Below the pieces are notes generated by a model, which did not search any database, had not been told where the DNA came from, and saw nothing but the letters and a program-made list of their open reading frames with translations. Shown one piece after another: positions 7,060 to 36,063 of a stretch of 36,063 nt of DNA. The stretch comes from Candidatus Woesearchaeota archaeon (GTDB lineage Archaea > Nanobdellota > Nanobdellia > SCGC-AAA011-G17 > GW2011-AR18). How positions within the stretch are numbered: the first letter of the stretch is position 1; the number at the start of each line of letters is the position of its first letter. The stretch is taken from NCBI GenBank assembly GCA_964395935.1, contig CAYNBR010000003.1:1-36063 (forward strand), in the 5' to 3' direction. The position numbers were made by a program, and so were the translations under genes.

Positions 7060-7781
7060 TGGGAAATTTTAAAGTTTTAGTTGGTGGGCCTGTAAGCGAT
7101 CATCATGATTATTGTTATGATCAATTTATTAAGGCTGTAAAAAGTTTAACTTATCCTAATTTAGATATTTGTTTCGTTGATAATTCTAAAGATGATAAAT
7201 TTTATAATAAAATTAAAAAAGATTTACCCGGAACTTTAAGAATTCCTTATAATGAAAGTGTTAAGGTTAGATTAGCAGATTCTAGGAATTTAGTTAAAGA
7301 AAAAGCTTTGAAGGAAGGTTATGATTATTTATTTTGTTTAGATCAAGATACTATTCCTCCTAAAGATATAATTGAAAGGTTATTAAAACATGAAAAATAT
7401 ATTACTACCGGTGTTTATTATGGGAGATTTACTAAACTTAATCCTATGACAAATAAATATGAACAAAAAGTATTACCATTGATTAGAGTTAAATCTTTGA
7501 AAGATCCTAATTTGTTTGTTAGTGTAAGGCAAGATGTAATTGAGTCTGGTAACTTAATTGAAATTCATTCCTGCGGTACTGGATGTATATTAATACATAG
7601 AAATGTTTTGGAAAAAATTAAATTTAGATGGAAAGAAGATAAGCCTGGAGTTGATGATGTATTTTTTTGTGAAGATGCTTTAAATTTCGGATTTAAGATC
7701 TATGCAGATACTAGTATTATATGCGAACATTTAGTTGATGGAAGAAAAATACATTGGGGAGAAGGAGATATGAAAACTTAA
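7059..7781 (+). CDS. family 2 glycosyltransferase (GT-A), paralog 2
   Basis: 240 aa. GTG start overlapping the upstream TAG by 1 nt, with GAGGAG SD 8 nt upstream. VLVGGPVSD ... YPNLDICFVDNS ... DYLFCLDQDTIPP ... CGTGCILIH ... DDVFFC. Confidence 0.7.
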   Translation: MGNFKVLVGGPVSDHHDYCYDQFIKAVKSLTYPNLDICFVDNSKDDKFYNKIKKDLPGTLRIPYNESVKVRLADSRNLVKEKALKEGYDYLFCLDQDTIPPKDIIERLLKHEKYITTGVYYGRFTKLNPMTNKYEQKVLPLIRVKSLKDPNLFVSVRQDVIESGNLIEIHSCGTGCILIHRNVLEKIKFRWKEDKPGVDDVFFCEDALNFGFKIYADTSIICEHLVDGRKIHWGEGDMKT

Positions 7782-9594: not shown

Positions 9595-11966
9595 TAAATT
9601 TATTTGATCTTACTTATAGATATTTTGAGAATCCATATTTTTTGTTATTGATTATACCGTCTATAATTATATTAATATACTTGATAACTAAAGATTTTAT
9701 TAAAGTTCCATTAGATAAAAATCAGCAGTCTAAATTAAAGCATAAAAGGATTATTGTAATTATATCTAGAATAATTATATTTGTTTTATTATTTATTGCT
9801 TTATCCGGACCATTTGTAGAAAAATATATGACCATACAGGGAGATCCAAAATTAAAATTATTAATAGATAATTCTACTTCTATGCAAGTTTTCGATTTTG
9901 AAGCTATTAATAATTTACAAGATCAATTAAACTCTAGATTGCCTCTTGAAACAGTTTACATAAGTAGCGGAGAGAAAAGTTCCTTAGGGGATAATATACT
10001 TGTAAATTTAAAAAGGAATGAAAATGTCTTACTGCTTTCAGATGGATATAGTAATTCAGGAATTAGTTTAGGTGATATTGTATTAAAGTCTAATAGTCTT
10101 AATTCTAGTATTAGTGCTATTAATTTAAAACCGAAATATTATGATGCTTCAATCACAATTTCTGGAAGTGATAAAACTAGCAGTGGTGCAGATAATACAT
10201 TTACTGTTTCTCTAAAACAGACTGAGAGGAAGAGTGTTCATGTAGTTGTTGAAATAGATGGAGTAAGTGTTTTGGATACTAAAACTGATAAGGATACATT
10301 AACAATAACTAAAACTTTTTCAGAGGGATATCATAAAATAACTGCTAAATTAGATACAGAAGATTATTTCAAGAATAATAATATATTTTATAAAACTGTT
10401 AAAGTTGTGCCTAAACCTAAAATTTTAATTTATAGCAAAGTGGGTATTGGGATAAATAAGTTATATGATCCTTTATATGATATTACTCTAACTAGTGATT
10501 TTCCTAAAGATTTAGGTATATACACTGCAGTTGTTGTAGATGACATTGAAATAAAAGATATTAATGATAAGACAGATTTACTTACTGATTTTGCGGCTTC
10601 TGGAAATGGTTTATTTGTTCTTGGAGGAGGTAATTCTTTTGATTCTGGCGGTTATAAAAATTCTAACTTTGAACAGATATTACCTGTTTATGTTTCAAAA
10701 GCTGGAAGGAAAAAAGGAGAAAATAATATTGTAATTGCTATAGATATTTCTGGAAGTACAGGACATGTATTCCAAGGAAGTGTGAAATCTGATATTGAGA
10801 AAGCTATTGCTTTAGATATGATAAAAAATTTAAGTTTAGTAAATAATGTAGGTGTTGTTGCATTTAATACACAAGGGTATAAAGTATTTGATATAAAACC
10901 ATTAATAGACCAACCAGATATGGAAGATATAATTATGAGACTAAAATATGATGGCGGTACTTATATTTCCAATGGTTTATTGATGGCAATTGAAATGCTT
11001 AAAGGTAAGGGTGGAAGTAAAAATATTATACTTATTTCTGATGGAAGAAATCAAGATTTTGAACAAACTAATGAGGCTCTTAGATTGGCCAGCAGCCAGG
11101 GTATAAGGATTTATGCAATTGGTGTTGGGGAAGATACAGATAATAAGAATATGAAGGACATTGCAGATTCTACTGGCGGTACTTATTTTGAGCCTGATTC
11201 TACTGATAGAGTTAGAATTTTATTTGGTGATACAGAAATGAGCGGGACAAAGAAAGTATTTCCTTTAGTTGCTATTGATAAAAATCATTTTATAACTCAG
11301 AATTTAAATTTAAAAGGTAATATTTATGGATTTAATCAAGTTGTGCCTAAAGATAGTGCTAAATTACTAGTTACAGATGATGTTGGAGATCCAATAGTAG
11401 CAGTTTCAAGATTAGGATTGGGAAGAGTTGCGGTTTTAGCTACTGACTATAAATTATATGGGTTTGAATTATTAAATAAAGATAATTCTTTGTTATTGAC
11501 TAGAATTGGAAATTGGGTTATTGGAGATCCTGAAAGGAAAAATGATAAATTTGTAGAAATACAAGATGGAAGAATTGCGGAAGCTATAGATGTTAAGGTG
11601 AAATCAGATATACAGCCAAGTTCAAGTGAATTGGCATTGTATAAAGTTGATGATAGTCTTTATGATGGAAGTATTATTGTAAATAATGTGGGATTTAAAA
11701 GTTTGTTAGATGGTGTATTTGCTGTAAATTATAAAGAAGAATATCAAGGTGTTGGTATGAATAACCAATTAATAGGTGTTGTAAAAGCTTCTGGAGGAAG
11801 AATATTTAAGCAAGATGAAATTGAAGCAATCGTAGAATTTATAAAGTTGAAATCTAAGAGAGAAATGGTAACTAAAAAGAGCTATAGTTGGATATTTGCT
11901 TTAGCTGCTTTACTGGTTTACTTAATAGAAGTAAGCTATAGGAGAATAAATAGAAATAAAAAATGA
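9591..11966 (+). CDS. BatA/BatB-like VWA-domain membrane protein
   Basis: 791 aa. N-terminus FENPYFLLLIIPSIIILIYLI (BatA-N-like) plus a second TM. Central region ILIYSK ... LFVLGGGNSF is class-I amidotransferase-like/ThuA-like. VWA domain with MIDAS IAIDISGSTG and downstream ILISDG. C-terminal TM. GGGGTGA SD and ATGA overlap with the upstream gene. Confidence 0.75.
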   Translation: MINLFDLTYRYFENPYFLLLIIPSIIILIYLITKDFIKVPLDKNQQSKLKHKRIIVIISRIIIFVLLFIALSGPFVEKYMTIQGDPKLKLLIDNSTSMQVFDFEAINNLQDQLNSRLPLETVYISSGEKSSLGDNILVNLKRNENVLLLSDGYSNSGISLGDIVLKSNSLNSSISAINLKPKYYDASITISGSDKTSSGADNTFTVSLKQTERKSVHVVVEIDGVSVLDTKTDKDTLTITKTFSEGYHKITAKLDTEDYFKNNNIFYKTVKVVPKPKILIYSKVGIGINKLYDPLYDITLTSDFPKDLGIYTAVVVDDIEIKDINDKTDLLTDFAASGNGLFVLGGGNSFDSGGYKNSNFEQILPVYVSKAGRKKGENNIVIAIDISGSTGHVFQGSVKSDIEKAIALDMIKNLSLVNNVGVVAFNTQGYKVFDIKPLIDQPDMEDIIMRLKYDGGTYISNGLLMAIEMLKGKGGSKNIILISDGRNQDFEQTNEALRLASSQGIRIYAIGVGEDTDNKNMKDIADSTGGTYFEPDSTDRVRILFGDTEMSGTKKVFPLVAIDKNHFITQNLNLKGNIYGFNQVVPKDSAKLLVTDDVGDPIVAVSRLGLGRVAVLATDYKLYGFELLNKDNSLLLTRIGNWVIGDPERKNDKFVEIQDGRIAEAIDVKVKSDIQPSSSELALYKVDDSLYDGSIIVNNVGFKSLLDGVFAVNYKEEYQGVGMNNQLIGVVKASGGRIFKQDEIEAIVEFIKLKSKREMVTKKSYSWIFALAALLVYLIEVSYRRINRNKK

Positions 11967-23278: not shown

Positions 23279-23289
23279 CTTATATAAAT
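23279..23289 (+). promoter_or_regulatory. candidate TATA box for the spoIIM-like/aglB operon (leaderless)
   Basis: CTTATATAAAT centred ~27 nt upstream of ATG 23311. A second box on the opposite strand (CTATAAAG, revcomp of ~23268..23275) lies ~24 nt upstream of the divergent start at 23248. Confidence 0.4.
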
Positions 23290-23310
23290 CGTCAACTACG
23301 GTAAGTTATT

Positions 23311-24225
23311 ATGGTTTTTGAGGATTTAACTGGCCCTATTAATGCTAAAAAACACCCATTTAAATTATTTTTCATGGGTATTTTCTTTGCTGCTGTTTCT
23401 GCTGCTTTTAGTTTATGGATATTTAAGCAAGAAGCTAGTCTAGTAATGGTATTTTTAGTTGTATTAATGGCTATGCCTTTAATGTATTTTACATTTAGAG
23501 AAGAAGAGGAAGAAGATTGGGAAATGGATAGTGAGGTGGGTATACTTAATGAGCATGGAAAAGCAATTAGATTTTTATTATTACTCTTTTTAGGTTTTGT
23601 AGTCGGTTATTCATTAATTTTTTTAATCTTGCCGGAAAGTTTAGTACATTCATTGTTTGGGGTACAATTAAGCACTATTGATAGTATAAACAGTAATGTC
23701 ATAAAATCTTCTGCCACTAATAATTTTATAAGCGGTAAATTGGGAGCATTAGATAATCAGTTATTGAATGGTAAACTTACATCTCCTGAGGCTTTTTATT
23801 TAATTTTGCTTAATAATATTAAAGTTATGTTTTTTTGTCTAATATTTGCCTTTTTCTTCGGGGCAGGTTCTATATTTGTTTTAGCATGGAATGCTTCTGT
23901 TATAAGCGCAGCTATAGGAACTTATTTTAGAAATGGCTTAGCAAGTTATGCTAATTTAGTAGGATTTAGCAAGGCAGGAATATATCTACAATTATTTGTG
24001 GCTGGAGTATTTAGATATATGGTTCATGGAATATTTGAAATTGCAGGTTATTTTATTGCAGCTTTAGCTGGTGGAATTATATCCATGGCTTTAATTAATC
24101 ATGGTACAAAGAGTAAAGGATTTAAGAAAATAGCTTTTGATGTAACGATATTAATATTAATCTCTTTCTTAGTCTTAATTGTGGGGTCTTTTGTGGAAGT
24201 ATTCATTACTCCAATGTTATTTTAA
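23311..24225 (+). CDS. SpoIIM/DUF95-family integral membrane protein
   Basis: 304 aa, multi-TM. NNIKVMFFCLIFAFFFGAGSIFVLAWNASVISAAIG and HGIFEIAGYFIAALAG match the stage II sporulation protein M-like family. 2-nt spacer to aglB. Confidence 0.6.
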   Translation: MVFEDLTGPINAKKHPFKLFFMGIFFAAVSAAFSLWIFKQEASLVMVFLVVLMAMPLMYFTFREEEEEDWEMDSEVGILNEHGKAIRFLLLLFLGFVVGYSLIFLILPESLVHSLFGVQLSTIDSINSNVIKSSATNNFISGKLGALDNQLLNGKLTSPEAFYLILLNNIKVMFFCLIFAFFFGAGSIFVLAWNASVISAAIGTYFRNGLASYANLVGFSKAGIYLQLFVAGVFRYMVHGIFEIAGYFIAALAGGIISMALINHGTKSKGFKKIAFDVTILILISFLVLIVGSFVEVFITPMLF

Positions 24226-24227
24226 AT

Positions 24228-27017
24228 ATGAGTGAAGGAACTTTAGAAAATAGGAAAGAGAAATTATTTAATTTTTTCAAATTAAAAGTTGAATGGTTAC
24301 AATATGTTGTACTTGCAGTTATTGTATGGGCTGGTTGGATTATAAGAGTACAACCTATAAACAAATTAATAGATGTTACAACTGGTAAATATATTTCTCT
24401 TGAATTGGATTCAACCTTATTTTTAAGATATGCTGAATATATTGCTGAACATGGGAAGCTATTCTTAATAGATTCACTCAGATATTTTCCCAGAGGTGCG
24501 AACATAGATATTACTATTTTTTCATCTTATTTTGTAGGTTATATATATAGAATTTTGCATGCTTTAGGATTTAGTGGGAGCGTTGCTTTAGTTAATGATT
24601 ACTATCCTTTAATTGTTACTGCCATAATGAGTATATTTTTATTCTTATTAATAAGAAAGATGTTTGAATGGAAGACTGCAGCATTAACTGTTCTACTGAT
24701 TAATGTGCTTCCATCTTTTTTATTTAGAAGTATGGGTGGAAGTTCAGACCACGATATCTTAGGAATGATGTTTCTTGTTATGGCATTTTACTTTTATTTA
24801 TTGGCTTTAGAAGCTAAAAAAATCAAATTTAATATATTATTTGGATTCATAGCAGGAGTAATTGCTGTTCTTGGATTAATGACTGCCGGTTCTATTAACT
24901 TCTTTTTTATGACTGCTTCTGTTTTTATATTGATTGAAATAGTTCTCAATAGATTAACAAAAAATGATTTTGTAGTATTAACTTCTTTTTTGCTTACTTT
25001 CACATTGTTGCTTATTGGCATGAATAGAAACTCATTAACAGGGCTAATTGCTTCATTTACTACTGGATTATTTTATTTAGATTTTATTGTCGGTTTATTC
25101 TATTTGTATATAATAAAAACTTCAAAATTTTCAAAACTACTTGAAAAATATAATAAATTAAAAAATATTCCAATAGGATTGCTATCTTTATTATTTGGAT
25201 TAATCTCCTCCTTTTTTCTAACTTTAATATTATTTGGTTCCGGTTTTCTTAGTGAGAGAATTGCCGCATTCTCGCAGACTTTGTTTAAGTCTTTTTCATT
25301 GACTAGGTGGGTATTAACAGTAGCCGAAAACAGACAACCCTATGTTCAAGATTGGTTTGGACAATACGGCACAATTATTGTTTATGCTTTCATACTTGGA
25401 GCAATACTCCTATTCTACGATGCAATAAAAAATTCAAAAAGAGCTAAATATTTAACTTTAAGTTATACTATTTTTATATTTCTTTACATATTTTCTAGAT
25501 ACTCGGGAAGTAGTATATTGAATGGTACTTCAGGATTGTCTCACTTTCTATTTTTTGGTTCTTTAATTACATTCTCTTTATTTATTTTGATATATTATTT
25601 TTATATATATAATAAAGAAAGAGATGAATTTGATGCTCTAACTAAATTTGATAAAAAACATATTCTTATATTGGTTTTTTCACTTGTTATGATTCTTATA
25701 GCTACTTCTGCTATTAGATTCTTGTTTGAATTTACACTCCCAATAGTAATCTTAGCTTCTTATTTTATAGTCTATATTGTTGAATATCTGTATCATTCAA
25801 AGAATAAAAACTTATTATTTTTTGCCTCATTTGTTTTGGCGTTTTTCTTTGTAAAGGAAACTATGAAATTGAGCGGGATTATAGAATTTTTATTATTTTT
25901 ATTAATTACTGGGGGTGTAGCTTATTTTGTTTATTCTAAAAAACAACTTAATTATGCAAGTTATGCCTGTATCATTATAATACTTTTAATGTTATTCTCA
26001 CCATTTGCTTTTGCTAAAGGAGTTGTTACTAATTATTATCAGGTTAGTTATGACAATGCAAAATTCTCTGGCCCGGGGTATAATCAACAATGGCAATATG
26101 CAGGTAAATGGGTGAGAGAAAATACTCCTAAGGAGGCAGTATTTGCACACTGGTGGGATTATGGTTATTGGGTACAAAGTGGTTTTGAAAGAGCAACTGT
26201 TACAGATGGTGGAAATTTCTTTGGATGGTGGAATTACTTAATGGGTAGGAATGTATTAACTGCACAAACTGATGAAGAGTCACTAGGTTATTTATATGCG
26301 CATAATGTCACTCACTTATTAATGGTCTCAGATGAAATTGGGAAGTATTCTGCATATTCTTCTATAGGGAGCGATGCTGCTGGAGATAGGTTTTCTTATA
26401 TACCTACTTTTAGTTTAGATCCTAATACTATTAGAAAGACAAGGAATGAGACACTATACTACTTTACAGGGGGTTTTGCTTTAGATGAAGATCTTAATTA
26501 CAATGGTAAAATAATACCCAGAGGAGGGGCAGGTATTGCTGCAGTGGTTGTTCCAACTTACGAAATTGAGAATAATGGGAATAAATCTACTGCTTTCAGT
26601 CAACCTAGAGCAATTTTGATTTATCAGGGGCAGCAATATGAGCTGCCTATGAGGTGCTTTTATTTAGATCACTTATATACTTATAGTAATTATGCTTATG
26701 GTGGTTGTTTAAGAATTATTCCAGTTATACAAAATAATCAAGCAAATAACTTTGCAGCAGGATTATTTTTATCTCCCACTACTTCCCACAGTAATCTCGG
26801 TAGACTATACCTACTCAATGAGCCATCTGATTACTTTAAACTTATTTATGATGATACAAACTTAGGCGTGCCTTTATCGATATATAATGGCAATCTAATC
26901 GGACCAATAAGAATTTGGGGAGTTAATTACCCTAAAGATTTTAAACTTAGTAAGGAAGATATGGACTTTTATTTACAAACTTCCTATCCTGATCAATCTT
27001 TATTAAATCCAATTTAA
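24228..27017 (+). CDS. aglB: archaeal oligosaccharyltransferase, STT3 homolog
   Basis: 929 aa. ~13 N-terminal TM segments plus a C-terminal soluble domain. WWDYG at 26151..26165 (AHWWDYGYWV). Acidic motifs LELD (first loop) and SSDHD. DEIGK (DK-like) about 60 aa after WWDYG. Confidence 0.9.
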   Translation: MSEGTLENRKEKLFNFFKLKVEWLQYVVLAVIVWAGWIIRVQPINKLIDVTTGKYISLELDSTLFLRYAEYIAEHGKLFLIDSLRYFPRGANIDITIFSSYFVGYIYRILHALGFSGSVALVNDYYPLIVTAIMSIFLFLLIRKMFEWKTAALTVLLINVLPSFLFRSMGGSSDHDILGMMFLVMAFYFYLLALEAKKIKFNILFGFIAGVIAVLGLMTAGSINFFFMTASVFILIEIVLNRLTKNDFVVLTSFLLTFTLLLIGMNRNSLTGLIASFTTGLFYLDFIVGLFYLYIIKTSKFSKLLEKYNKLKNIPIGLLSLLFGLISSFFLTLILFGSGFLSERIAAFSQTLFKSFSLTRWVLTVAENRQPYVQDWFGQYGTIIVYAFILGAILLFYDAIKNSKRAKYLTLSYTIFIFLYIFSRYSGSSILNGTSGLSHFLFFGSLITFSLFILIYYFYIYNKERDEFDALTKFDKKHILILVFSLVMILIATSAIRFLFEFTLPIVILASYFIVYIVEYLYHSKNKNLLFFASFVLAFFFVKETMKLSGIIEFLLFLLITGGVAYFVYSKKQLNYASYACIIIILLMLFSPFAFAKGVVTNYYQVSYDNAKFSGPGYNQQWQYAGKWVRENTPKEAVFAHWWDYGYWVQSGFERATVTDGGNFFGWWNYLMGRNVLTAQTDEESLGYLYAHNVTHLLMVSDEIGKYSAYSSIGSDAAGDRFSYIPTFSLDPNTIRKTRNETLYYFTGGFALDEDLNYNGKIIPRGGAGIAAVVVPTYEIENNGNKSTAFSQPRAILIYQGQQYELPMRCFYLDHLYTYSNYAYGGCLRIIPVIQNNQANNFAAGLFLSPTTSHSNLGRLYLLNEPSDYFKLIYDDTNLGVPLSIYNGNLIGPIRIWGVNYPKDFKLSKEDMDFYLQTSYPDQSLLNPI

Positions 27018-27020
27018 AAT

Positions 27021-28508
27021 ATGGTTAAAAATTCAAATAAGAAAATTTTGTATTTATCTGTCTTTCTGTTATTAATTAATTTTATTTACAGATTGTTAAA
27101 TCAGTCTAAAATGTTGAAGTATTTTCCTGTTGATTATAATATAGATGGTGCTTCTTATATGGCCCAACTTTATTTTTTAAAAAATTGTGGATTCCATAAG
27201 ATTTGTTATTATTGGTATAATGGTTTTATCAATTTTTTACATAGTCCTCCAGGATGGTATCTATTTACTTTACCTATATTTGAAACTTTTAAATCAGTAA
27301 ATGTTGCAACATATTTAAGTATGCTGTTAATCTTTTTACTATTATTTATCATAATTTATTTTCTCTTTGGTTCTATAGGTCTGTCTAGATTTAAAAGAAT
27401 TGCTTTATTTATTTTCTTCTTCGGAAATGCTATCGCTGTAGGTAATTTTATTAAACTTATAAGGGTTCATGAACTCTTTGCCTGGATGAACTTTTTCCTT
27501 TTCTTTTTCTTAATTTACTATTTTAAAGATAGAAAAATTGATTGGAGGTATTGGCTTGTTGTGCCTTTCTATGCAATAATACTTTTATCATATCAAAGTG
27601 TTGGAGTAATTACTTCTTTATTGTTCTTATCCATTTTTTTGGTTAAAAATGGCAAGGAAAAATTAATTGTTTGCATTTCTGCTCTCCTCTCTTTGTTAGT
27701 CAGCGCTTTTTGGTGGCTACCAGCCATTCTCAAAATTAATGAGGGCGGTTTGAATACGTTACATCAGGCCACTTGGGTTTGGAGATTTGACACTTTAAAT
27801 TTTTATACTAATATTTTTGTCACAATAATCCCTTTAATTTTTTTTATTGTATTTTATTATTATATTAAAAATCTAAAGAGCAAATCTAAAGAATTATTAT
27901 TTTATTCACCCATATTATTTCTCGCTTTGATATTTTTCTTAAGACTGCACCCATTTATACCTATATTTAATAATATTTTTCCAGATCCGTATTTGATATT
28001 CTTCATATTTTTTATAATCTTTTGTTTTTTGAAAATCGATATCTCACTAATAAGATTTTCAAATTATGTTTCTTACATTTTACTATTTATAGTTCTCCTA
28101 AGCTTATCTTTTAATTTGTTTAGGACTCCCCTTTTTGTTGTCCCTGATCAGCCTTTGAACTTGCAGATAGAAGAAACTCTTAAAAATGTAGAAGGTTCTT
28201 TTTTGATGTTTGGATACTTTGGATCTAAAATAAATCCTAAAAATGTTTATTCTTATGCACCAACTAAATACAATCTCACAACAGCTTATGGTTGGTATCC
28301 TGAAGTAAAAAATGAAGTTTATTTTAAAGGTATTCAACTTTTAGATGGTTATTTTAATGATAATAATTGTAAAGGCTTTTTATCTGTTTTACATACTTAC
28401 AATGTGAGTAATATTATTAGTTTAAATGAGAACTGTGACTTCTTTAATAGGTGTAAATTAAAAGAAAAGGTTAAAAAAGATTCTGTTTGTTTATATGATG
28501 TGAATTGA
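27021..28508 (+). CDS. uncharacterised polytopic membrane protein, possible GT-C-fold glycosyltransferase
   Basis: 495 aa, ~11-13 TM. Acidic first loop PVDYNIDGASY right after TM1. YYWYNGFINFLHSPPGWYLF resembles the PTPS-related/GT-C membrane protein families (weak, from memory). 3-nt spacer after aglB. Confidence 0.45.
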   Translation: MVKNSNKKILYLSVFLLLINFIYRLLNQSKMLKYFPVDYNIDGASYMAQLYFLKNCGFHKICYYWYNGFINFLHSPPGWYLFTLPIFETFKSVNVATYLSMLLIFLLLFIIIYFLFGSIGLSRFKRIALFIFFFGNAIAVGNFIKLIRVHELFAWMNFFLFFFLIYYFKDRKIDWRYWLVVPFYAIILLSYQSVGVITSLLFLSIFLVKNGKEKLIVCISALLSLLVSAFWWLPAILKINEGGLNTLHQATWVWRFDTLNFYTNIFVTIIPLIFFIVFYYYIKNLKSKSKELLFYSPILFLALIFFLRLHPFIPIFNNIFPDPYLIFFIFFIIFCFLKIDISLIRFSNYVSYILLFIVLLSLSFNLFRTPLFVVPDQPLNLQIEETLKNVEGSFLMFGYFGSKINPKNVYSYAPTKYNLTTAYGWYPEVKNEVYFKGIQLLDGYFNDNNCKGFLSVLHTYNVSNIISLNENCDFFNRCKLKEKVKKDSVCLYDVN

Positions 28509-28509
28509 T

Positions 28510-29325
28510 TTGAAAAATCTTATATTAACTTTTGACTTGGAAGAGTTTGTAACTCCTGCTGAAATAGGTTTGAATATAGATAAAGCAATTCTATTTAATA
28601 TCTCGTTGCGTGGTTTTGATAATATAATAAATTTACTTGAAAAACATCCAAGAATAAAAGTTACTTTTTTTACTACAGTTGAGTTTGCTGAATATGCTGA
28701 AACTAAATTGAAAAAATTAATAAGTAAGGGTCATGAGCTCGCATTACATGGACTTTATCACAATACAAATATTTCAAAAATGAGTGAAAATGATGCGAGA
28801 ACTGAACTTTTACTAGCAAAAAATAAACTTGAAAGTTTATTTAAAATTAAAGTTACAGGATATAGGTCTCCACAAATGCGTCCGTTTAATTCAAAAATTC
28901 TTAAGGATATAGGGATTGAATATAATAGCTCGATGCATCCTACATATGTTCCTGGAAGGGATAATTATTTCTTTGAAAAAAGAAGTGCTTATTTTAATGA
29001 GATTTATCAAGTTCCAGTTTCAGTTACACCCTTAATTAGATTGCCATTTTCATGGATTTGGTTTAGAAATATGCCTTTAGTTTATTCAAAATTGTGTACT
29101 AAATTAACTTACTTGGATCAAAACTACGTAAATATATATTTTCATCCTTGGGACTTTTTTGATGTTGATAAAAATCCGTTTACTAATAAGATTATGAAAC
29201 TTATAATTAGGAATACAGGGAGTAAAATGATTCATAAATTTGATAAATATCTTGATTGGTGTGAAAATAATTTTAATTCTGTTACTATGGGGGAATATGT
29301 AAATGAGTGTAAGAAATTATTTTGA
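28510..29325 (+). CDS. polysaccharide deacetylase (CE4-like)
   Basis: 271 aa. TTG start 1 nt after the upstream stop, with no nearby in-frame ATG. ILTFDLEEF ... ELALHGLYH ... GYRSP are motifs of NodB/DUF3473-type deacetylases. Confidence 0.65.
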   Translation: MKNLILTFDLEEFVTPAEIGLNIDKAILFNISLRGFDNIINLLEKHPRIKVTFFTTVEFAEYAETKLKKLISKGHELALHGLYHNTNISKMSENDARTELLLAKNKLESLFKIKVTGYRSPQMRPFNSKILKDIGIEYNSSMHPTYVPGRDNYFFEKRSAYFNEIYQVPVSVTPLIRLPFSWIWFRNMPLVYSKLCTKLTYLDQNYVNIYFHPWDFFDVDKNPFTNKIMKLIIRNTGSKMIHKFDKYLDWCENNFNSVTMGEYVNECKKLF

Positions 29326-29914
29326 AAAAGTTTCAAATAATTACGATAATAAAAGAACTAAAGGATTATTCGGCACATTTGTAAACTTAATTTTGGTAAA
29401 TAAAGAAAGAGATTTATTAATCAAAAAATTAAATCCTCAAAAAAATGAGTTTATATTAGATGCCGGCTGTGGTAATGGCTATTATTCTAACCTCATGAAA
29501 AAATTTGGAGCAAATCCTCTCGGCATTGATATATCTCATGGTATGATTAAAAAATATAAATCTAAAAAATTGAATGGTGTTGTTGGCGATATTTTGTCTT
29601 TTAATTTTAAAAATAAATTTGATAAGGTGTTTTGTGCAGGTTTACTTGAATTTACAAATTTTCCCATTGAGACAATAAAAATATTCAATAAAATATTAAA
29701 AAATGATGGTACAATAGTAATTTTATTTCCGAGATTTAATCCCTTCGGTATGTTATATTTTATATATCATAAGTTAAATAACATAAATATCAAACTTTTT
29801 TCTAATAATTCTATTTCTTTAATGTGTCATCTATCTGGATTTGAAGTTGTTGATATAACTAGAGCTAATTTGCTCACAAAAATATTGGTAGCTAAAAAGC
29901 ATAGAAAACATTAA
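29303..29914 (+). CDS. class I SAM-dependent methyltransferase
   Basis: 203 aa. YFEKVSNNYD ... ILDAGCGNGYY (motif I) ... GIDIS ... DKVFCAGLLEF. 23-nt overlap with the deacetylase gene. Confidence 0.7.
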   Translation: MSVRNYFEKVSNNYDNKRTKGLFGTFVNLILVNKERDLLIKKLNPQKNEFILDAGCGNGYYSNLMKKFGANPLGIDISHGMIKKYKSKKLNGVVGDILSFNFKNKFDKVFCAGLLEFTNFPIETIKIFNKILKNDGTIVILFPRFNPFGMLYFIYHKLNNINIKLFSNNSISLMCHLSGFEVVDITRANLLTKILVAKKHRKH

Positions 29915-29938
29915 AAACTTACTTTAGATCTTTTATTT

Positions 29939-30634
29939 ATGATACAAGATCAAGACTATTTGTGGAAACTTGAGGAAAATGATTTTTGGCACAAGAATAA
30001 AGATAGGATATTAATAAAATTAGTAAAACCTGGAAAAGTTTTGGATATTGGTGCAGGTACTGGTTCTTTTACTTTAAAACTTGCTAAACTCGGGATGGAT
30101 GTTACTTATATTGATGCTTCAAAAAAGTATTATACAATTGCAAAAAAAAGAGCTAAAAATGAGAATCTAAGGCTTGGTTTTATAAATGGTTATTTTCCAT
30201 CTAAAAAAATTAAAGGGAAATTTGATAATATAATAATAAGTGGTTTTATAGAACATATTGAAGATGATCGTAAACTATTGACTGATATTTATAAATTATT
30301 AAATAATGGTGGTAGGATGATTTTGTTGACTTCAGCATATCCCTCTTTATATTCCAATTTTGATAGGAACGTCGGCCATTATAGGAGGTACTCTAAAATA
30401 GGATTAAGAACTAAAATGCAAATGGCTGGTTTCAATGTTAAGTTTTTAAAATATTGGGATATCTTGGGCATGCCTGTATTATTTATAACTAAACTTACAG
30501 GAAATGTCCCCATTAGTACTGATAAATTGAATAATAGAATCCTAAATTATTTATTGGATAGGTGGTTTATAATATTTGAAAATAAAATGTTATTGCCATT
30601 CGGGCTTGATTTAATTGCAATGGCTGAGAAGTAA
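29939..30634 (+). CDS. class I SAM-dependent methyltransferase
   Basis: 231 aa. VLDIGAGTGSFT (motif I), YIDAS, IIISGFIEHIEDD, GGRMILLT. Confidence 0.7.
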   Translation: MIQDQDYLWKLEENDFWHKNKDRILIKLVKPGKVLDIGAGTGSFTLKLAKLGMDVTYIDASKKYYTIAKKRAKNENLRLGFINGYFPSKKIKGKFDNIIISGFIEHIEDDRKLLTDIYKLLNNGGRMILLTSAYPSLYSNFDRNVGHYRRYSKIGLRTKMQMAGFNVKFLKYWDILGMPVLFITKLTGNVPISTDKLNNRILNYLLDRWFIIFENKMLLPFGLDLIAMAEK

Positions 30635-30676
30635 TACATAGAAACTTTTATAATAATCCAGTTTGTTTCTTTTTCT

Positions 30677-31429
30677 ATGGTTAAAAAAACTATTGAGTAC
30701 TCAATAATTATCCCAGCATATAATGAAGAAAAGATAATTGCAAGCACTATAGATCGAACATATGATTTTTTTAAAAAATCAAATGAAACTTTTGAGATTA
30801 TAGTTGCTAATGATGGTTCTAAAGATAATACAGTTAAAGTTGTTTTGGATAAATCGAAGAAGTATAAATCTTTGAGATTGGTAGATAATGCTGTAAATAT
30901 GGGCAGGGGTGCCGCGCTTAATAATGCCATTAGAAATTCTAAAGGAAATATTATTGTTTATATTGATGCAGATTTAGCTATAGACTTGGATTTATTTCCT
31001 AAACTCATTTCAGCTATTAAAGATGAAGATGTAGATATTGCTGTCGGGTCTAAACATTTATCAGATTCAATTGTAGACTATCCAAAATTAAGAAGAATTT
31101 TTAGTAAAGCTTATTCATCTTTGGCAAGATTACTTCTAGGCTCACACATCAGGGATTATCAATGCGGATTTAAAGCTTTTAAAAAAGATGTAATAATTGA
31201 TGTTATTCCTTATGTTAAATCACAGAAATGGTCTTGGGATACTGAAGTTTTAGTAAAAGCTCAATGGTTAGGATATAAGGTTAGAGAATTGCCTGCCAAA
31301 ATTGTGAATGTCTATGGGAGAGAGAGTAAAGTTCATTTAATTAAAGATATTAAAGATATGGGGGGTGAATTATTAAGATTGTTTAAAGAAAGAATTACCT
31401 TCAAATCTTCTAAGTCGAAGAAATTTTAA
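30677..31429 (+). CDS. GT2 dolichyl-phosphate hexose synthase-like glycosyltransferase (DPM1/GtrB/ArnC type)
   Basis: 250 aa. YSIIIPAYNEE, ANDGSKDNT, YIDADL, IRDYQCGFKAF, WSWDTEVL. Confidence 0.75.
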   Translation: MVKKTIEYSIIIPAYNEEKIIASTIDRTYDFFKKSNETFEIIVANDGSKDNTVKVVLDKSKKYKSLRLVDNAVNMGRGAALNNAIRNSKGNIIVYIDADLAIDLDLFPKLISAIKDEDVDIAVGSKHLSDSIVDYPKLRRIFSKAYSSLARLLLGSHIRDYQCGFKAFKKDVIIDVIPYVKSQKWSWDTEVLVKAQWLGYKVRELPAKIVNVYGRESKVHLIKDIKDMGGELLRLFKERITFKSSKSKKF

Positions 31430-31452
31430 ACCTTACTATTCATCTATTTCTT

Positions 31453-32988
31453 ATGGATAATAAGACTAAATACTTTATTTTGGCTCTTTTAGTATTAATT
31501 TCTTTTAGTATAAGACTATCTTGGATTAACCTTACGATTATGGAAGGGGATATGTTTAGAGATTTTGAAATTTCTGAAAGTATTTTACATGGTAATGTAC
31601 GTTATGTGGGTATTGGTTCTTTTGATCAAATAACAAATCAGCAGAGTTTTGGACCTATCATGTATTATATATTAGCAGTCGTATTTGCTATTTTTAAATC
31701 TCCTTTGTCTGCTGCGATACTTGTAGCAATATTAAATTCTTTAGCAGTTATTATTACCTTTTTTTTCTGTAGTAAATATTTTAATGATAAAATAGCTTAT
31801 ATTGCTTCATTTTTATATGCAGTTAATCCTTGGTCTGTTTATATATCGCATTCTCATTGGAATCCGTATTATTTGCCATTTTTTTCTGTTATATTTTTTT
31901 ATTTTTTATTTGGATTTGTTTTAGACCATAAAGATACTTATTTAATCTACTCTACTTTCCTATTGGCAATTATGCTTAATTTTCATTTAACCCCTCTGCT
32001 CTTCATACCACTATTAATTCTTTGCATAATCTTATTTAGAAGGGATACTAAATTTAAAATTCTATTATATTCTTTATTCTTTTTTTTACTCCCACTTTTA
32101 CCCTTTATTTATTATAATTTAAAAAATAATATTTTTTTGCTTAGTCCGCTTCTTTACGGTCTCGGAAGAAGTTATTCTGGAATATTTACGGGTTTTGTTC
32201 AATCTATTGGTATTCCTGTTATGTTAAGTACAAATTATCTTGGTAGTTATGTTTATGGTTCTAGTAATATTTTTGGTAATCAATTAATCGGATATTTATT
32301 TTTTATATTGACAATATTTATGGTTACTTTATTTATATTTTCATTTATTTTTTTATCCCTAAAAATAATTAAAAAGAAAAATTTTGACAATAAATATCTT
32401 TTGTTGCTTCTATGTTTTATTTTCATCCCAATACTACATTTTTTGAGATTTTCAGATGTAAGTCCACATTATTTTTTAATACTTTATCCTTTACAGTTTA
32501 TCATAATTGCAATATTTTTATCTTTCTTATACAAAAAGTATTTTACTAATTTTATTGGGATATTTAGATTATTATTTGTTTTATTTTTATTTCTTCAAAT
32601 ATTGAACATATTTTTATTATATAATTATGTTAATAAAAATGGTGCTACCAATATGGGTGAATTTAGTATACCATATAAAGACAAATTGGCAATTATAAAC
32701 TACCTAAAAGATGATTTAAAGGGTGAACAGTTAAATGTAATATTCTATAAAAATTCAAAGAGTTTTAAGTATTTATTTGATAAAAATTTTAATAATTTCA
32801 ATTATTATTTTTTGAATTCAACAGATAAAATTAAAAAAATTGATAGTGCTTACCTTATACTTGATAAAACCTCAATGCATAAACCTCAGCTTACAGAAGA
32901 AGAAAATGATTATTTTAATACCCTGACTAATAAGACCATTATAAATAGTGTTGAAATCTATAGGATTTCTAATGCGAAACCTTTTTAA
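31453..32988 (+). CDS. GT-C-fold membrane glycosyltransferase (ArnT/PMT, GT39/83-like)
   Basis: 511 aa, ~12 TM. Acidic first loop MEGDMFRDFE. C-terminal ~110-aa soluble region. Immediately downstream of a Dol-P-hexose synthase gene. Confidence 0.55.
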   Translation: MDNKTKYFILALLVLISFSIRLSWINLTIMEGDMFRDFEISESILHGNVRYVGIGSFDQITNQQSFGPIMYYILAVVFAIFKSPLSAAILVAILNSLAVIITFFFCSKYFNDKIAYIASFLYAVNPWSVYISHSHWNPYYLPFFSVIFFYFLFGFVLDHKDTYLIYSTFLLAIMLNFHLTPLLFIPLLILCIILFRRDTKFKILLYSLFFFLLPLLPFIYYNLKNNIFLLSPLLYGLGRSYSGIFTGFVQSIGIPVMLSTNYLGSYVYGSSNIFGNQLIGYLFFILTIFMVTLFIFSFIFLSLKIIKKKNFDNKYLLLLLCFIFIPILHFLRFSDVSPHYFLILYPLQFIIIAIFLSFLYKKYFTNFIGIFRLLFVLFLFLQILNIFLLYNYVNKNGATNMGEFSIPYKDKLAIINYLKDDLKGEQLNVIFYKNSKSFKYLFDKNFNNFNYYFLNSTDKIKKIDSAYLILDKTSMHKPQLTEEENDYFNTLTNKTIINSVEIYRISNAKPF

Positions 32989-33011
32989 TACGATTTTATT
33001 GTCTAAACTTT

Positions 33012-34019
33012 ATGATTTATATCACTCTATTATATGGCCTTATTAGTTTTTTGGCTGTTATTTTAGTAACTCCTTGGTTAATTAGATATTTAAGAAAAAT
33101 CGGAATTGTTGTAAAAGATCAGAATAAGAAAGATAAGCCCTTAGTCCCTATTTCTGGTGGTTTGGCTGTTCTATTCGGTATAATGGCGGGTATTTTGTTG
33201 TTTATTTTTAATCGTACATTTGTTTCTAAGGTTAATACAGGGTTGGTTATAAATGACAATACTTTGATGCTGATGTTTGCTGCCATGGTTTCATTATTTA
33301 TTATAACTCTTGTTGGATTTTTAGATGACTTAATTATTCAGAATGATAAAGAAAGTTCTGCAGGTTTAAAGCAATGGCAAAAACCATTATTAACTTTAAC
33401 TGCGGCAGTTCCTTTAATGGCTGTTAATGCCGGATCTACTACTGTAGGTTTGCCATTTTTTGGAGTTGTCGATTTAGGTATTATTTATCCACTAATTCTG
33501 ATTCCTCTTGGGGTAATTGGTGCGTCTAATATGGTTAATTTGCTTGCGGGATTTAATGGGTTAGAGGTCGGTATGGGTATTATCTATACCGGAATGCTTG
33601 GATTATATACTTATGTGAATGGCAGATATTTGGCTGCTTTAATTGCCCTTGTTACTTTCGGGGCATTAATTGCTTTTTACTTTTATAATAAATATCCTGC
33701 AAAAATACTTGCTGGGGATAGTTTGACTTATCTTTTAGGGGGAGTAATTGCGATAATTGCAATTTTAGGAAACGTTGAAAGAGCTGCTATAATTGCTTCT
33801 GTGCCATTTTTTATTGAGTTTGTATTAAAAGCAAGAAGTAAGTTTAAAGCAAAAAGTTATGGTTATTATGCAGATGGGAAAATTAAAAGCCACCATGAAC
33901 AAAAAATTTATTCATTACCTCATTTTTTAACTAGGACTGGTAAGTATACAGAAAAAGAAATTACATATGTCTTTATTTTGCTTGAGTTAATATTTGCGAG
34001 TTTGATATGGTTGATCTAA
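33012..34019 (+). CDS. aglH: UDP-GlcNAc:dolichyl-phosphate GlcNAc-1-phosphate transferase (MraY/WecA/ALG7 family)
   Basis: 335 aa, ~10 TM. VGFLDDL, NMVNLLAGFNGLEVG and AGDSLTYLLGG are signature motifs of polyprenyl-phosphate N-acetylhexosamine-1-P transferases. Confidence 0.8.
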   Translation: MIYITLLYGLISFLAVILVTPWLIRYLRKIGIVVKDQNKKDKPLVPISGGLAVLFGIMAGILLFIFNRTFVSKVNTGLVINDNTLMLMFAAMVSLFIITLVGFLDDLIIQNDKESSAGLKQWQKPLLTLTAAVPLMAVNAGSTTVGLPFFGVVDLGIIYPLILIPLGVIGASNMVNLLAGFNGLEVGMGIIYTGMLGLYTYVNGRYLAALIALVTFGALIAFYFYNKYPAKILAGDSLTYLLGGVIAIIAILGNVERAAIIASVPFFIEFVLKARSKFKAKSYGYYADGKIKSHHEQKIYSLPHFLTRTGKYTEKEITYVFILLELIFASLIWLI

Positions 34020-35278
34020 AAAAAATACTTAATTATAGTAAAGAGGACAGTTTAATTAGAGATAGTGCTGTATTATTTTTAGCTACTTCTGGTTTGTCTG
34101 CTGCTGGTTTTTTCTTTCATTTTTATATGGGCAGAGTTTTGGGCCCAGCAAGTTATGGTATCTTAGGAGCAATTTTTTCTTTACTTTATATTATTTTAGT
34201 TCCATTTAATGTCATTCAAACAAGTATTACTAATTTTATAGCTTCTTTTAAAGCTAAAAATGAAAATGATAAAATTAATAGCTTGTTTAGACAGTCGCTT
34301 AAAAAATTATTCCTATGTAGCTTGATACTAACTTTGATCTTCTTTTTAATAAATAATTATGTAGCTTCCTTTTTACATATTCCTTCTAAATACTTATTAA
34401 TTCTATTACCTATTATTTTATTATCTTTTTTATTGCCGGTAATGCGTGGATTGATGCAAGGTCTTGAGAAATTTAAAGTTCTAGGATTTAATATGACTAT
34501 GGAGGGAATTGCTAAAATTGTATTTGGTATACTTTTAGTAACTTTCGGTTTAGGTGTCAGCGGTGCTGTTATGGCTTTAGTACTTAGTTATTTAATGCCT
34601 CTATTATTTGCTTTTTTTGTTTTATCTAAATATTTGAAAAAGACAGGTGCAATCTTTAGCGGCAAGGAAGTTTATTCTTATGCTGTGCCTGTTTTAATTG
34701 CATTGGTTTTGTTTACAGGTCTTTATAGTATAGATGTTTTACTTGTCAAGAGGTTTTTTACAGAGACTGAAGCTGGGCTCTACGTAGCTTTAAGTTTTTT
34801 AGGCAGGATAATTTTCTTTGGTACTCAGAGTGTTGCTGTTGTTATGTTCCCTAAGTCTGTTGCAAATTTTTCTGTTAACAAGAAAAATCCTAAAATTTTA
34901 AAAAAAGCTTTATTTTTAGTTTCTATATTTGGAGGGTTTGCTACCTTAATCTATTTCTTATTTCCTAGATTAATAATTACAATATTATATGGTAAGAATT
35001 ATCTTGAAATAAGTAATTTGTTAGGATTATTTGGTTTGGTCATGTTGATACTCTCATTGTCTTATGTTTTAATTTTTTATAATTTGTCTATAAATCGAAT
35101 TAAGTTTATTTATTTTTTAGCTCTAACTCTCATTTTTGAAACTTTATTGATATTTATTTATCATAAAACTTTATTGCAAGTTGTTTTGATTTTACTTTCT
35201 TTATCTATTTTTATGTTTGTTTCAGTATTCTTTTATACAAATTATGAAAAAACTATCAATAATAATACCGGCGTATAA
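34007..35278 (+). CDS. MOP-superfamily oligosaccharide flippase (Wzx/AglR-like)
   Basis: 423 aa, ~12 TM. N-terminal ...LIRDSAVLFLATSGLSAAGFFFHFYMGRVLGP is typical of polysaccharide biosynthesis (Wzx) proteins. Confidence 0.65.
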   Translation: MVDLKKILNYSKEDSLIRDSAVLFLATSGLSAAGFFFHFYMGRVLGPASYGILGAIFSLLYIILVPFNVIQTSITNFIASFKAKNENDKINSLFRQSLKKLFLCSLILTLIFFLINNYVASFLHIPSKYLLILLPIILLSFLLPVMRGLMQGLEKFKVLGFNMTMEGIAKIVFGILLVTFGLGVSGAVMALVLSYLMPLLFAFFVLSKYLKKTGAIFSGKEVYSYAVPVLIALVLFTGLYSIDVLLVKRFFTETEAGLYVALSFLGRIIFFGTQSVAVVMFPKSVANFSVNKKNPKILKKALFLVSIFGGFATLIYFLFPRLIITILYGKNYLEISNLLGLFGLVMLILSLSYVLIFYNLSINRIKFIYFLALTLIFETLLIFIYHKTLLQVVLILLSLSIFMFVSVFFYTNYEKTINNNTGV

Positions 35279-36005
35279 TGAAGAAAGTAGAATATTGGCT
35301 ACTTTGGATAGTTACTATAATTTTTTTAATAATAAATTTAAAGACGATTTTGAATTAATTGTTGTCCCTAATAATTGCAAAGATAATACTACCAAACTTG
35401 TTAATTCTTTTTCTAAAAAACATAAAAATGTGGTCTGTTATGAAATTAATTACTTTGTAGGCAAGGGCGGAGCGGTGATTGAGGGTTTTAAATTAGCAAA
35501 AGGTCAGTTTATAGGTTTTGTTGATGCAGATGATTCTACTAAGGCTGATGCTTTTTATGATTTGTATAAAAATATAAATAATTATGATTGCGTTATTGCT
35601 TCTAGATGGATCAAAGGTGCTATTATTAATAAAAAACAGCCAATAATGAGAAGAATCGCATCTAGAACTTTTAATATTATTATTAGACTATTATTTCGAA
35701 TAAATGTAAGAGATTCGCAGTGTGGAGCCAAAATTTTTAGAAGAAAAGTACTATTAGAAATTATTCCTAATTTAACAACTACTAGATGGGCTTTTGATGT
35801 TGACTTACTTTATCAGCTTAAGAATAAAGATTTTACAATAAAAGAGATACCTACAGTGTGGAATGATAATCCTAACTCTAAATTGAATGTTAAGCGGGCT
35901 TCTATAGAAATGTTTTTCGCTATTGGAAGATTAAGGCTTATACATTCACCTTTTAAATTTATTGTTATAGCTTATGATAAACTTGCAGGGGATATACAAA
36001 AATGA
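35244..36005 (+). CDS. GT2 dolichyl-phosphate glucosyltransferase-like (ALG5/DPM1 type); start revised from 35217
   Basis: MKKLSIIIPAYNEE at ATG 35244. VDADD, VRDSQCGAKIF and RWAFDVDLLYQL resemble ALG5-type Dol-P-Glc synthases. Confidence 0.7.
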   Translation: MKKLSIIIPAYNEESRILATLDSYYNFFNNKFKDDFELIVVPNNCKDNTTKLVNSFSKKHKNVVCYEINYFVGKGGAVIEGFKLAKGQFIGFVDADDSTKADAFYDLYKNINNYDCVIASRWIKGAIINKKQPIMRRIASRTFNIIIRLLFRINVRDSQCGAKIFRRKVLLEIIPNLTTTRWAFDVDLLYQLKNKDFTIKEIPTVWNDNPNSKLNVKRASIEMFFAIGRLRLIHSPFKFIVIAYDKLAGDIQK

Positions 36006-36063
36006 GAATATTAATTTTTAATTGGAAGGATATAAAACACCCATATGCCGGCGGAGCAGAAGT
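36002..36063 (+). CDS. GT4-family glycosyltransferase, 3'-partial (runs off window)
   Basis: MRILIFNWKDIKHPYAGGAE is a typical N-terminus of GT-B (GT4) glycosyltransferases. ATGA overlap with the upstream stop. Confidence 0.55.
   Translation, partial: MRILIFNWKDIKHPYAGGAE

Follow-up and report, generated by a model that had tools for sequence, protein, structure and literature searches.

A probable AglB-dependent N-glycosylation island in a Woesearchaeota archaeon and its SpoIIM-like first gene

Contig CAYNBR010000003.1 of assembly GCA_964395935.1 (C3 in the following) ends in a series of 12 consecutive plus-strand open reading frames (ORFs), which runs from position 23311 to the contig end and includes the gene of the oligosaccharyltransferase AglB. 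The locus raises two questions: what do its genes build together, and why is aglB preceded by a gene of the SpoIIM/DUF95 family? The window, i.e., the whole stretch of DNA that was analyzed (36,063 nucleotides), is one whole contig. The host, a Woesearchaeota/Nanoarchaeia (DPANN) archaeon, has a genome of 0.94 Mb (942 kb, 64 contigs, 28% GC, estimated 99% complete). Judged by the families of its genes, the region likely forms the first half of an island of 24 kb or more that serves AglB-dependent protein N-glycosylation.

Gene content of the AglB-centred island

A preliminary description of the window had reported 12 same-strand genes separated by at most 42 nt or overlapping, and all of these ORFs were found at the coordinates given. 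The genes, with glycosyltransferase abbreviated as GT and S-adenosylmethionine as SAM, are as follows.

23311-24225, plus strand: g01, SpoIIM/DUF95 (arCOG01994-type) polytopic membrane protein, 304 aa (PF01944, 9.4e-12)
24228-27017, plus strand: g02, AglB oligosaccharyltransferase, 929 aa (STT3, PMT_2 and STT3-PglB_core domains)
27021-28508, plus strand: g03, membrane glycosyltransferase of predicted GT-C fold, 495 aa (AlphaFold2 and Foldseek; family near PF10131)
28510-29325, plus strand: g04, predicted cytoplasmic CE4 deacetylase with DUF3473, 271 aa (PF01522, 4.5e-10; PF11959, 2.1e-7)
29303-29914, plus strand: g05, class I SAM methyltransferase, 203 aa (Methyltransf_11, 3e-14)
29939-30634, plus strand: g06, class I SAM methyltransferase, 231 aa (Methyltransf_25, _23 and _11, about 1e-15)
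30677-31429, plus strand: g07, GT2 resembling polyprenyl-phosphate-sugar synthases, 250 aa (PF00535, 1.6e-32)
31453-32988, plus strand: g08, GT-C (PMT_2/ArnT-like), 511 aa (PF13231, 5.9e-7, above cut-off)
33012-34019, plus strand: g09, predicted polyprenyl-phosphate HexNAc-1-P transferase (AglH/ALG7-DPAGT1-like), 335 aa (PF00953, 7e-33)
34007-35278, plus strand: g10, MOP-superfamily (Wzx/AglR-like) flippase, 423 aa (Polysacc_synt, 3.8e-13)
35244-36005, plus strand: g11, GT2 resembling dolichyl-phosphate mannose synthase (DPMS), 253 aa (ATG at 35244) or 262 aa (TTG at 35217) (PF00535, 3e-26)
36003-36063, plus strand: g12, start of a GT4, first 20 codons MRILIFNWKDIKHPYAGGAE; gene completed on contig C35

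From g01 to g12, the 11 spacers measured 2, 3, 1, -23, 24, 42, 23, 23, -13, -35 and -3 nt, i.e., -35 to +42 nt, in agreement with the earlier statement. On the left, the island is bounded by a divergent intergenic gap of 62 nt, beyond which lie a minus-strand PterinBD-DUF4346 gene and a phosphoribosyl pyrophosphate synthase gene. Searches of Pfam, NCBIfam and PDB upheld all family calls of the preliminary description at the domain level.

The AglB assignment of g02 is carried by its domains and motifs. PF02516 was matched with 1.9e-8, above the cut-off, and the GT-C membrane domain is N-terminal. In the first external loop, ISLELD aligns with IIHEFD of human STT3B, so that the acidic residue is present, and GGSSDHD aligns with AGSFDNE of the same protein as the second acidic motif. 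The stretch AHWWDYGYW aligns with the WWDYG motif of human STT3B and of Pyrococcus furiosus AglB. Downstream of WWDYG, where a DK or MI motif would be expected, the stretch SDEIGKYSAY shows DxxxK spacing; this stretch lies outside every alignment to solved AglB. The gene is present in a single copy in the genome. Several orthologues of AglB from Woesearchaeota are titled 'glycosyltransferase family 39 protein' in NCBI records, which is probably a mis-annotation originating from the PMT_2 match.

The initiating transferase and the flippase were identified likewise. The nearest solved relative of g09 is human DPAGT1 (1e-15), ahead of MraY (3e-11), and its DD, NxxNxxAGxNGLE and GD motifs align with those of DPAGT1. 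The protein scored far below the cut-offs of the MraY models of NCBIfam, which are the only such models there. By sequence, g09 is a member of the GlcNAc-1-P transferase (GPT) subgroup of the PNPT family, nearer to GPT than to MraY. The earlier assignment of this 335-aa protein as a GlcNAc-1-P transferase was thus retained by the domain search (PF00953, with DPAGT1 nearest), with its donor as a prediction. That GlcNAc is the first sugar, and that sugars are de-N-acetylated and methylated, are predictions from family membership. PF01943 was matched by g10 with 49.9 bits (cut-off 28.2; residues 18-282), PF13440 covers residues 41-336, and Polysacc_synt_3 (8e-12) and MatE (2e-6) were both above cut-off. 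The AglB-centred, lipid-linked N-glycosylation cluster that had been proposed is therefore borne out by domain: a PNPT transferase, cytoplasmic GTs, a MOP flippase, an oligosaccharyltransferase and pairs of GT-C with GT2 resembling Dol-P-sugar synthases.

The island had been described as extending over about 12.7 kb; it runs on beyond the window. C3 ends with 55 nt that recur exactly at the start of contig C35, and neither contig has another link of this kind. C35 adds another 11.5 kb, so that the joined island spans at least 24.2 kb with 22 genes and five GT-C proteins. The GT4 gene g12 is completed there (Glycos_transf_1, 8e-44) and followed by ten further genes. The genes of C35 (L046) are, in order:

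GT4 (completion of g12)
Gmd (GDP-mannose 4,6-dehydratase)
GT2
radical SAM/SPASM enzyme (3054-4175; 86% identical in the closest relative, G002)
PMT_2 GT-C, 505 aa
GT2
membrane protein of 275 aa that matches no family (6647-7474)
GT4
GT4
GT2, 231 aa
PMT_2 GT-C, cut by the contig end

A contig beyond C35 was found neither by k-mer overlap nor by a tblastn search for the C-terminal half that the last GT-C lacks. In G002, whose AglB is 63% identical, the same 11 window genes occur in the same order with one insertion of 2.9 kb, and the gene series after its gene GT2b resembles C35. The insertion (L021, 5417-8352) lies between the GT2a and GT-C511 genes.

No Pfam or NCBIfam model matched g03 itself. 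An AlphaFold2 model (35 homologues; predicted local distance difference test (pLDDT) score of 94) was compared with PDB by Foldseek, and STT3, AglB, PglB, DPY19, AftD and ArnT were on top (E 2e-5 to 7e-3). All 17 PDB matches at E <= 1e-3 were GT-C enzymes (STT3, AglB, PglB, DPY19 and AftD). Residue D42 in the first external loop was invariant in 35 sequences, the C-terminus forms a small globular domain, and 11 of the 69 other g03 homologues listed carry PF10131 (PTPS_related). Fold, first-loop Asp and small C-terminal domain are shared with the GT-C_A enzymes (STT3/AglB/PglB, DPY19, ArnT, AftD) and with PF10131. As differences, g03 has neither WWDYG nor a Pfam match of its own, and with 495 aa it is far shorter than AglB. 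According to its model, g03 is a further GT-C glycosyltransferase of an uncharacterised family. It had previously been listed as an unknown polytopic protein; it is polytopic and matches no curated sequence family, while its fold can now be assigned to GT-C.

Among the other GTs, g08 matched TIGR03663 (Agl23) with 3.5e-8, which is under the cut-off. For both GT2 proteins, the P. furiosus Dol-P-Man synthase 5MLZ is the nearest solved relative (1e-17 for g07, 7e-11 for g11), followed by GtrB and ArnC. With 69 bits against NF041391 (cut-off 375) and 45 bits against AglJ TIGR04182 (cut-off 325), g07 stayed far below, and g11 was likewise far under every NCBIfam equivalog cut-off. In addition to the five GT-C proteins of the joined island, a sixth is encoded on contig C8. 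There, a second glycosylation locus (C8:21299-27215) comprises matches of the GT4 type and, close to the end of the contig, a further PMT_2 GT-C.

The CE4 motifs of g04 are readable as TFDLEE, HGLYH and YRSPQ (Asp, His-x3-His and R-x-P). PF01522 was matched with 40 bits (cut-off 23.1), and TIGR03006 with 1.2e-21, under its cut-off. Since g04 has no signal peptide, N-terminal hydrophobic segment or transmembrane segment, a cytoplasmic location is predicted. Its gene overlaps g05 by 23 nt, and the pair of CE4 and methyltransferase genes is overlapping or adjacent also in G002, G013 and G016. NodB and NodS act by de-N-acetylation and then methylation, and the pair is reminiscent of them. By this analogy, which is only a lead, the arrangement suggests that g04 and g05 may catalyze consecutive steps, de-N-acetylation followed by methylation.

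Conserved core, variable block and probable promoters

In order to compare gene order, 20 aglB loci of relatives and three more distant contigs labelled Pacearchaeota were analyzed. Directly after aglB, either g03 or the GPT gene was found, in about eight of the 20 loci each. SpoIIM, AglB, GPT, Wzx and GT2 genes are colinear in G030. The three Pacearchaeota-labelled contigs, whose AglB proteins are 31-34% identical, show the order SpoIIM-STT3-Glycos_transf_4-flippase-GT2. Shorter modules were found in G037 (SpoIIM-AglB-GPT-GT2) and G039 (AglB-GPT-GT2). Behind GPT and flippase, g11 has its counterpart both in relatives and in the Pacearchaeota-labelled contigs. The full gene order of the window was found only in G002 among the relatives, and the accessory genes are shuffled elsewhere. 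Because the modules of five genes are colinear in relatives, g01, g02, g09, g10 and g11 can be regarded as the core, which is split here by the lineage-variable genes g03 to g08.

In one of the three Pacearchaeota-labelled contigs, from Logan (L130, SRR25508653), a gene for PF03706 LPG_synthase_TM (8802-9770) replaces the Wzx-type gene in an otherwise colinear module. Proteins of this type (arCOG00899) were reportedly predicted to be lipid flippases by Makarova et al. in 2015. The replacement has the look of a natural substitution, in line with the prediction.

A horizontal origin of the island was also considered. No foreign sign was found, with a GC content of 0.22-0.35 per kb across the island as compared to 0.28 for the genome.

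The promoter signal was derived from those genes of the genome that are preceded by a gap of 60 nt or more. It showed an A-rich block at -36 to -32 and a TTTAWAW block at -29 to -23 relative to ATG, with little Shine-Dalgarno signal. Since the blocks are at a fixed distance and a Shine-Dalgarno signal is almost absent, leaderless transcription is apparently the norm. A position weight matrix (PWM) was trained on the other 62 contigs, excluding C3 and C35, and compared with random positions. Spacers of 15-59 nt also usually hold a promoter (median PWM score of 3.5). The following elements were observed in the island.

23279-23290, plus strand: BRE/TATA-like element agaaa-cttatataaa of g01, 21-32 nt before ATG (PWM 3.2, top 2% of random positions)
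29901-29917, plus strand: promoter-like element before g06 (PWM 5.9, no random position as high)
30639-30655, plus strand: promoter-like element before g07 (PWM 4.5, top 0.4%)
31415-31431, plus strand: promoter-like element before g08 (PWM 4.0, top 0.7%)
32974-32990, plus strand: promoter-like element before g09 (PWM 5.1, top 0.2%)

These five scores (3.2-5.9) exceed the median of gene starts that are preceded by 60 nt or more. In comparison, scores were negative for g02, g03, g10 and g11 (-3.7 to -5.0) and near zero for g04, g05 and g12 (-0.1 to 0.8). The TATA-like sequence cttatataaa of g01, at -32 to -23, implies a leaderless transcript, as far as can be read from sequence. The 12 genes had been placed behind one TATA box; the element of g01 is present, but g06, g07, g08 and g09 carry a promoter signal as well. 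In view of the promoter signals at five gene starts, transcription from several promoters was preferred to a single operon. Most likely, at least five leaderless units would be formed: g01 to g05, g06, g07, g08, and g09 onward.

Proposed pathway and competing readings

The families were assigned by the searches described above, while sugar identities, step order and acceptors are those of a working model, the best-supported one, which corresponds to standard archaeal N-glycosylation. In this model, g09 would transfer HexNAc-1-phosphate, probably GlcNAc-1-P, onto dolichyl phosphate on the membrane's cytoplasmic side. The glycan would be extended by the soluble GT2 and GT4 enzymes g11, g12 and others encoded on C35, and its sugars could be modified by the CE4 enzyme g04 and the methyltransferases g05 and g06. 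Gmd from C35 would provide a GDP-6-deoxyhexose precursor, and the radical SAM/SPASM enzyme may also modify sugars. After translocation of the lipid-linked glycan by g10, AglB would transfer it to the Asn of N-x-S/T sequons in secreted proteins. Single sugars could be charged onto dolichyl phosphate by g07 and the DPMS-like 231-aa GT2 of C35. These Dol-P-sugars would be spent outside the membrane by g03, g08 and the two GT-C proteins of C35 for further decoration of the glycan, in parallel to Haloferax AglD/AglR/AglS.

As a candidate substrate, the window offers an S-layer-like secreted protein:

1964-4582, plus strand: S-layer-like secreted protein (weak S_layer_C match, 5e-5)

Several results weigh against this pathway or parts of it. 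None of the products reached an NCBIfam equivalog cut-off, which concerns the sugar identities and acceptor specificities. Both g07 and g11 end shortly past the GT2 domain with no hydrophobic segment, whereas solved archaeal DPMS, GtrB and ArnC have a C-terminal anchor. Because of this missing anchor, it is uncertain whether they are Dol-P-sugar synthases or GT2 enzymes that extend the lipid-linked oligosaccharide. The division into several promoters depends on a PWM that is weak, in a genome of 28% GC. The S-layer-like protein contains 9 N-x-S/T sequons, as compared to 11.0 ± 2.9 in composition-preserving shuffles, and sequons were not enriched in it or in neighbouring secreted proteins by this shuffle test. 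It had been called an obvious substrate on the basis of its sequons; their number was exact, but the argument has no statistical weight. The protein is a reasonable candidate, and its sequon count is compatible with glycosylation without being evidence for it. Finally, HMG-CoA reductase (PF00368) and trans-polyprenyl synthase (PF00348) both went undetected in the genome, estimated to be 99% complete. A single cis-prenyltransferase is encoded (C8:8003-8659, PF01255, 1e-69). Since reductase and trans-polyprenyl synthase were undetected, the isoprenoid precursors of the carrier lipid probably come from outside the cell. The skeleton of the pathway had been called complete, and it is at this level only that the pathway is complete.

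A mixed island is an unlikely alternative. In this case, only g01, g02, g09, g10 and g11 would serve N-glycosylation, and g03 to g08 together with much of C35 would form a separate extracytoplasmic system. Pairs of polyprenyl-phosphate-sugar synthase and GT-C would then act on surface proteins, at Ser, Thr or further residues in the manner of PMT or DPY19, or on membrane glycolipids. Such a division would account for the fact that most relatives have no g03 to g08 between aglB and GPT, and for the separate promoter-like elements of g06, g07 and g08. Protein-modifying GT-Cs (STT3, DPY19) are among the top structural matches of g03, g08 and two C35 proteins match PMT_2, and six GT-C proteins in 0.94 Mb are seemingly more than one glycan needs. 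However, g03 follows aglB after 3 nt with no promoter signal and keeps this place in about eight of 20 relatives, which points to a shared pathway. Moreover, the Dol-P-Man-dependent GT-C AglS of Haloferax completes the N-glycan itself (PMC3871713), and acceptor specificity is unreadable from sequence. That the island makes only a polymer not linked to protein (capsule, exopolysaccharide or lipoglycan), with AglB incidental, is very improbable: GPT, Wzx, GT2, GT4, CE4 and methyltransferases also belong to the stock of bacterial Wzx/Wzy loci and the best NCBIfam match of g04 is the exopolysaccharide-system deacetylase TIGR03006, but aglB, the sole copy of the genome, lies inside the first tightly coupled unit, its adjacency to GPT is widely conserved, and the 22 products include no detected family of Wzy-type polymerases or chain-length regulators.

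An island dedicated to AglB-dependent N-glycosylation can be compared with known systems. In Methanococcus and Sulfolobus, the agl genes are more dispersed. The preliminary statement that agl genes are often partly scattered applies to some models; it does not apply to Haloferax volcanii, where the genes for the pentasaccharide lie in one cluster except aglD (PMC3871713). The island is likewise AglB-centred as is the H. volcanii cluster (HVO_1517-HVO_1531: aglJ, P, Q, E, R, S, F, I, G, B and M, plus aglD). Counterparts are found in the GT2 Dol-P-hexose transferases AglJ and AglD, the SAM methyltransferase AglP and the Wzx-like, flippase-type AglR. The GT-C proteins of the island can be likened to AglS, which finishes the glycan outside the membrane in a Dol-P-Man-dependent manner (PMC3871713). 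Differences exist at the first step, since Haloferax starts with a hexose placed on Dol-P by a GT2, while the island encodes a PNPT-family HexNAc-1-P transferase beside the flippase. The CE4 deacetylase, the five GT-C proteins, the radical SAM/SPASM enzyme and the SpoIIM-like first gene are particular to the island, and no island product reached the Haloferax equivalog cut-offs. With the systems initiated by AglH/ALG7 (DPAGT1) in Methanococcus, Sulfolobus and eukaryotes, g09 shares PF00953 and the motifs, which would imply a Dol-PP-linked HexNAc start; its identity to these enzymes is low, and its sugar specificity is a prediction. A second GlcNAc transferase of the Agl24 or Alg13/14 type was not recognised in the island.

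The SpoIIM/DUF95 gene upstream of aglB

The tight coupling of g01 to aglB had been pointed out before, and a spacer of 2 nt was measured. Based on sequence, g01 is predicted to be co-transcribed and probably translationally coupled with aglB. The protein matched PF01944 with 45.6 bits (cut-off 26.9) over model positions 2-163 of 163. Its AlphaFold2 model (pLDDT of 88) is all-helical. Since no solved structural relative was found in PDB under E 0.3, no mechanism can be borrowed for g01. Across relatives, the mean column identity was 57-60%, and among the invariant polar residues are an EEEE(E)D stretch, H82, WNAS, R235, HG..E..YF and E296..TP.

In order to determine if the arrangement is conserved, related genomes were compared. 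Of 251 genomes sampled from the class, 203 were found to have a SpoIIM-like gene. The synteny check that had been suggested showed that the adjacency recurs: in 16 of 20 close relatives, aglB lies directly 3' of the SpoIIM-like gene on the same strand. In a wider sample of Woesearchaeota, aglB follows directly at 16 of 76 loci and is nearby at 3 more. With one genome per family from other orders, it follows directly in 7-8 of 31 families and lies within 4 kb in about 12 of 31. Thus, the adjacency recurs in many families of Nanoarchaeia, often within the series SpoIIM-AglB-GPT-flippase-GT2, and most families are without it. Elsewhere, the SpoIIM-like gene is mostly found between oppositely oriented aIF2-beta and RPA/MCM genes. 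In the tree of SpoIIM proteins, the midpoint root has paired loci on either side, and a minimum of three state changes is required by well-supported branches. STT3 was found in 29 of 32 SpoIIM-positive and 5 of 20 SpoIIM-negative genomes, which is weak evidence, as 13 of the 20 SpoIIM-negative genomes come from a single family and the AglBs in question are divergent, so that PF02516 matches them weakly. No fusion with PF01944 was found in 120 AglB homologues (561-980 aa).

One explanation, about as likely as not, is that the gene order was inherited without functional meaning, g01 being a housekeeping membrane protein that shares its promoter with aglB. It agrees with the location of the SpoIIM-like gene in most sampled families, i.e., between aIF2-beta and RPA/MCM, with the lack of fusions among the 120 homologues and with several genomes that hold STT3 and no detectable SpoIIM-like gene. 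According to Makarova et al., arCOG01994 genes are mostly stand-alone (PMC5898192). Mere inheritance is harder to reconcile with an adjacency that persists in lineages whose AglB has no more than 31-48% identity and that is seen in 16 of 20 close relatives, at least 7-8 families of other orders and both parts of the tree divided by the midpoint root. Where a co-directional downstream neighbour of a g01 homologue is present, it is most often aglB, and in the window aglB lacks a separate promoter signal and starts after a spacer of 2 nt.

A functional role is plausible but less likely than not: in Nanoarchaeia (Woesearchaeota and Pacearchaeota), the SpoIIM/DUF95 protein, encoded by the first gene of the conserved five-gene module, may be a partner of AglB. 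As an accessory subunit, it could pass secreted polypeptides on to AglB as they emerge; alternatively, it could take care of the lipid carrier in its spent or loaded form. No published link of the SpoIIM/DUF95 family to AglB was found in a literature search. Other members of the family (PF01944, COG1300, arCOG01994), which g01 would resemble in this respect, are tied to the membrane-side handling of exported proteins or of modifying enzymes. In Bacillus, SpoIIM scaffolds SpoIID and SpoIIP, of which archaea have no homologues according to Makarova et al. (PMC5898192). In some euryarchaea, arCOG01994 genes form an operon with arCOG02177 (PMC5898192), i.e., with AliA, which is required for lipoprotein lipidation (PMC12462473). 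Furthermore, all circular-bacteriocin clusters contain DUF95 genes, and loss of lcyD blocks secretion (PMC6131525).

Since AglB-centred clusters are already well known, the island itself adds little beyond a further example from an uncultivated DPANN lineage. To our knowledge, no N-glycan has been described in this lineage. At least 2.6% of the 0.94-Mb genome and six GT-C proteins appear to be devoted to surface glycosylation, which is relevant to the way in which archaea that depend on a host use scavenged precursors to build their surfaces. The g03 family beside aglB, with its confident GT-C fold and uncharacterised function, merits experimental follow-up. The SpoIIM-AglB module is one lead worth testing, as the recurrent operon provides a testable handle on a family with no known biochemical role in any domain of life, and it bears on whether the archaeal oligosaccharyltransferase is truly a single-subunit enzyme. 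If the partnership is true, the members of the DUF95 family linked to SpoIID/SpoIIP, circular bacteriocins and AliA would have in common with g01 that they serve as a membrane platform where proteins are modified outside the cytoplasm.

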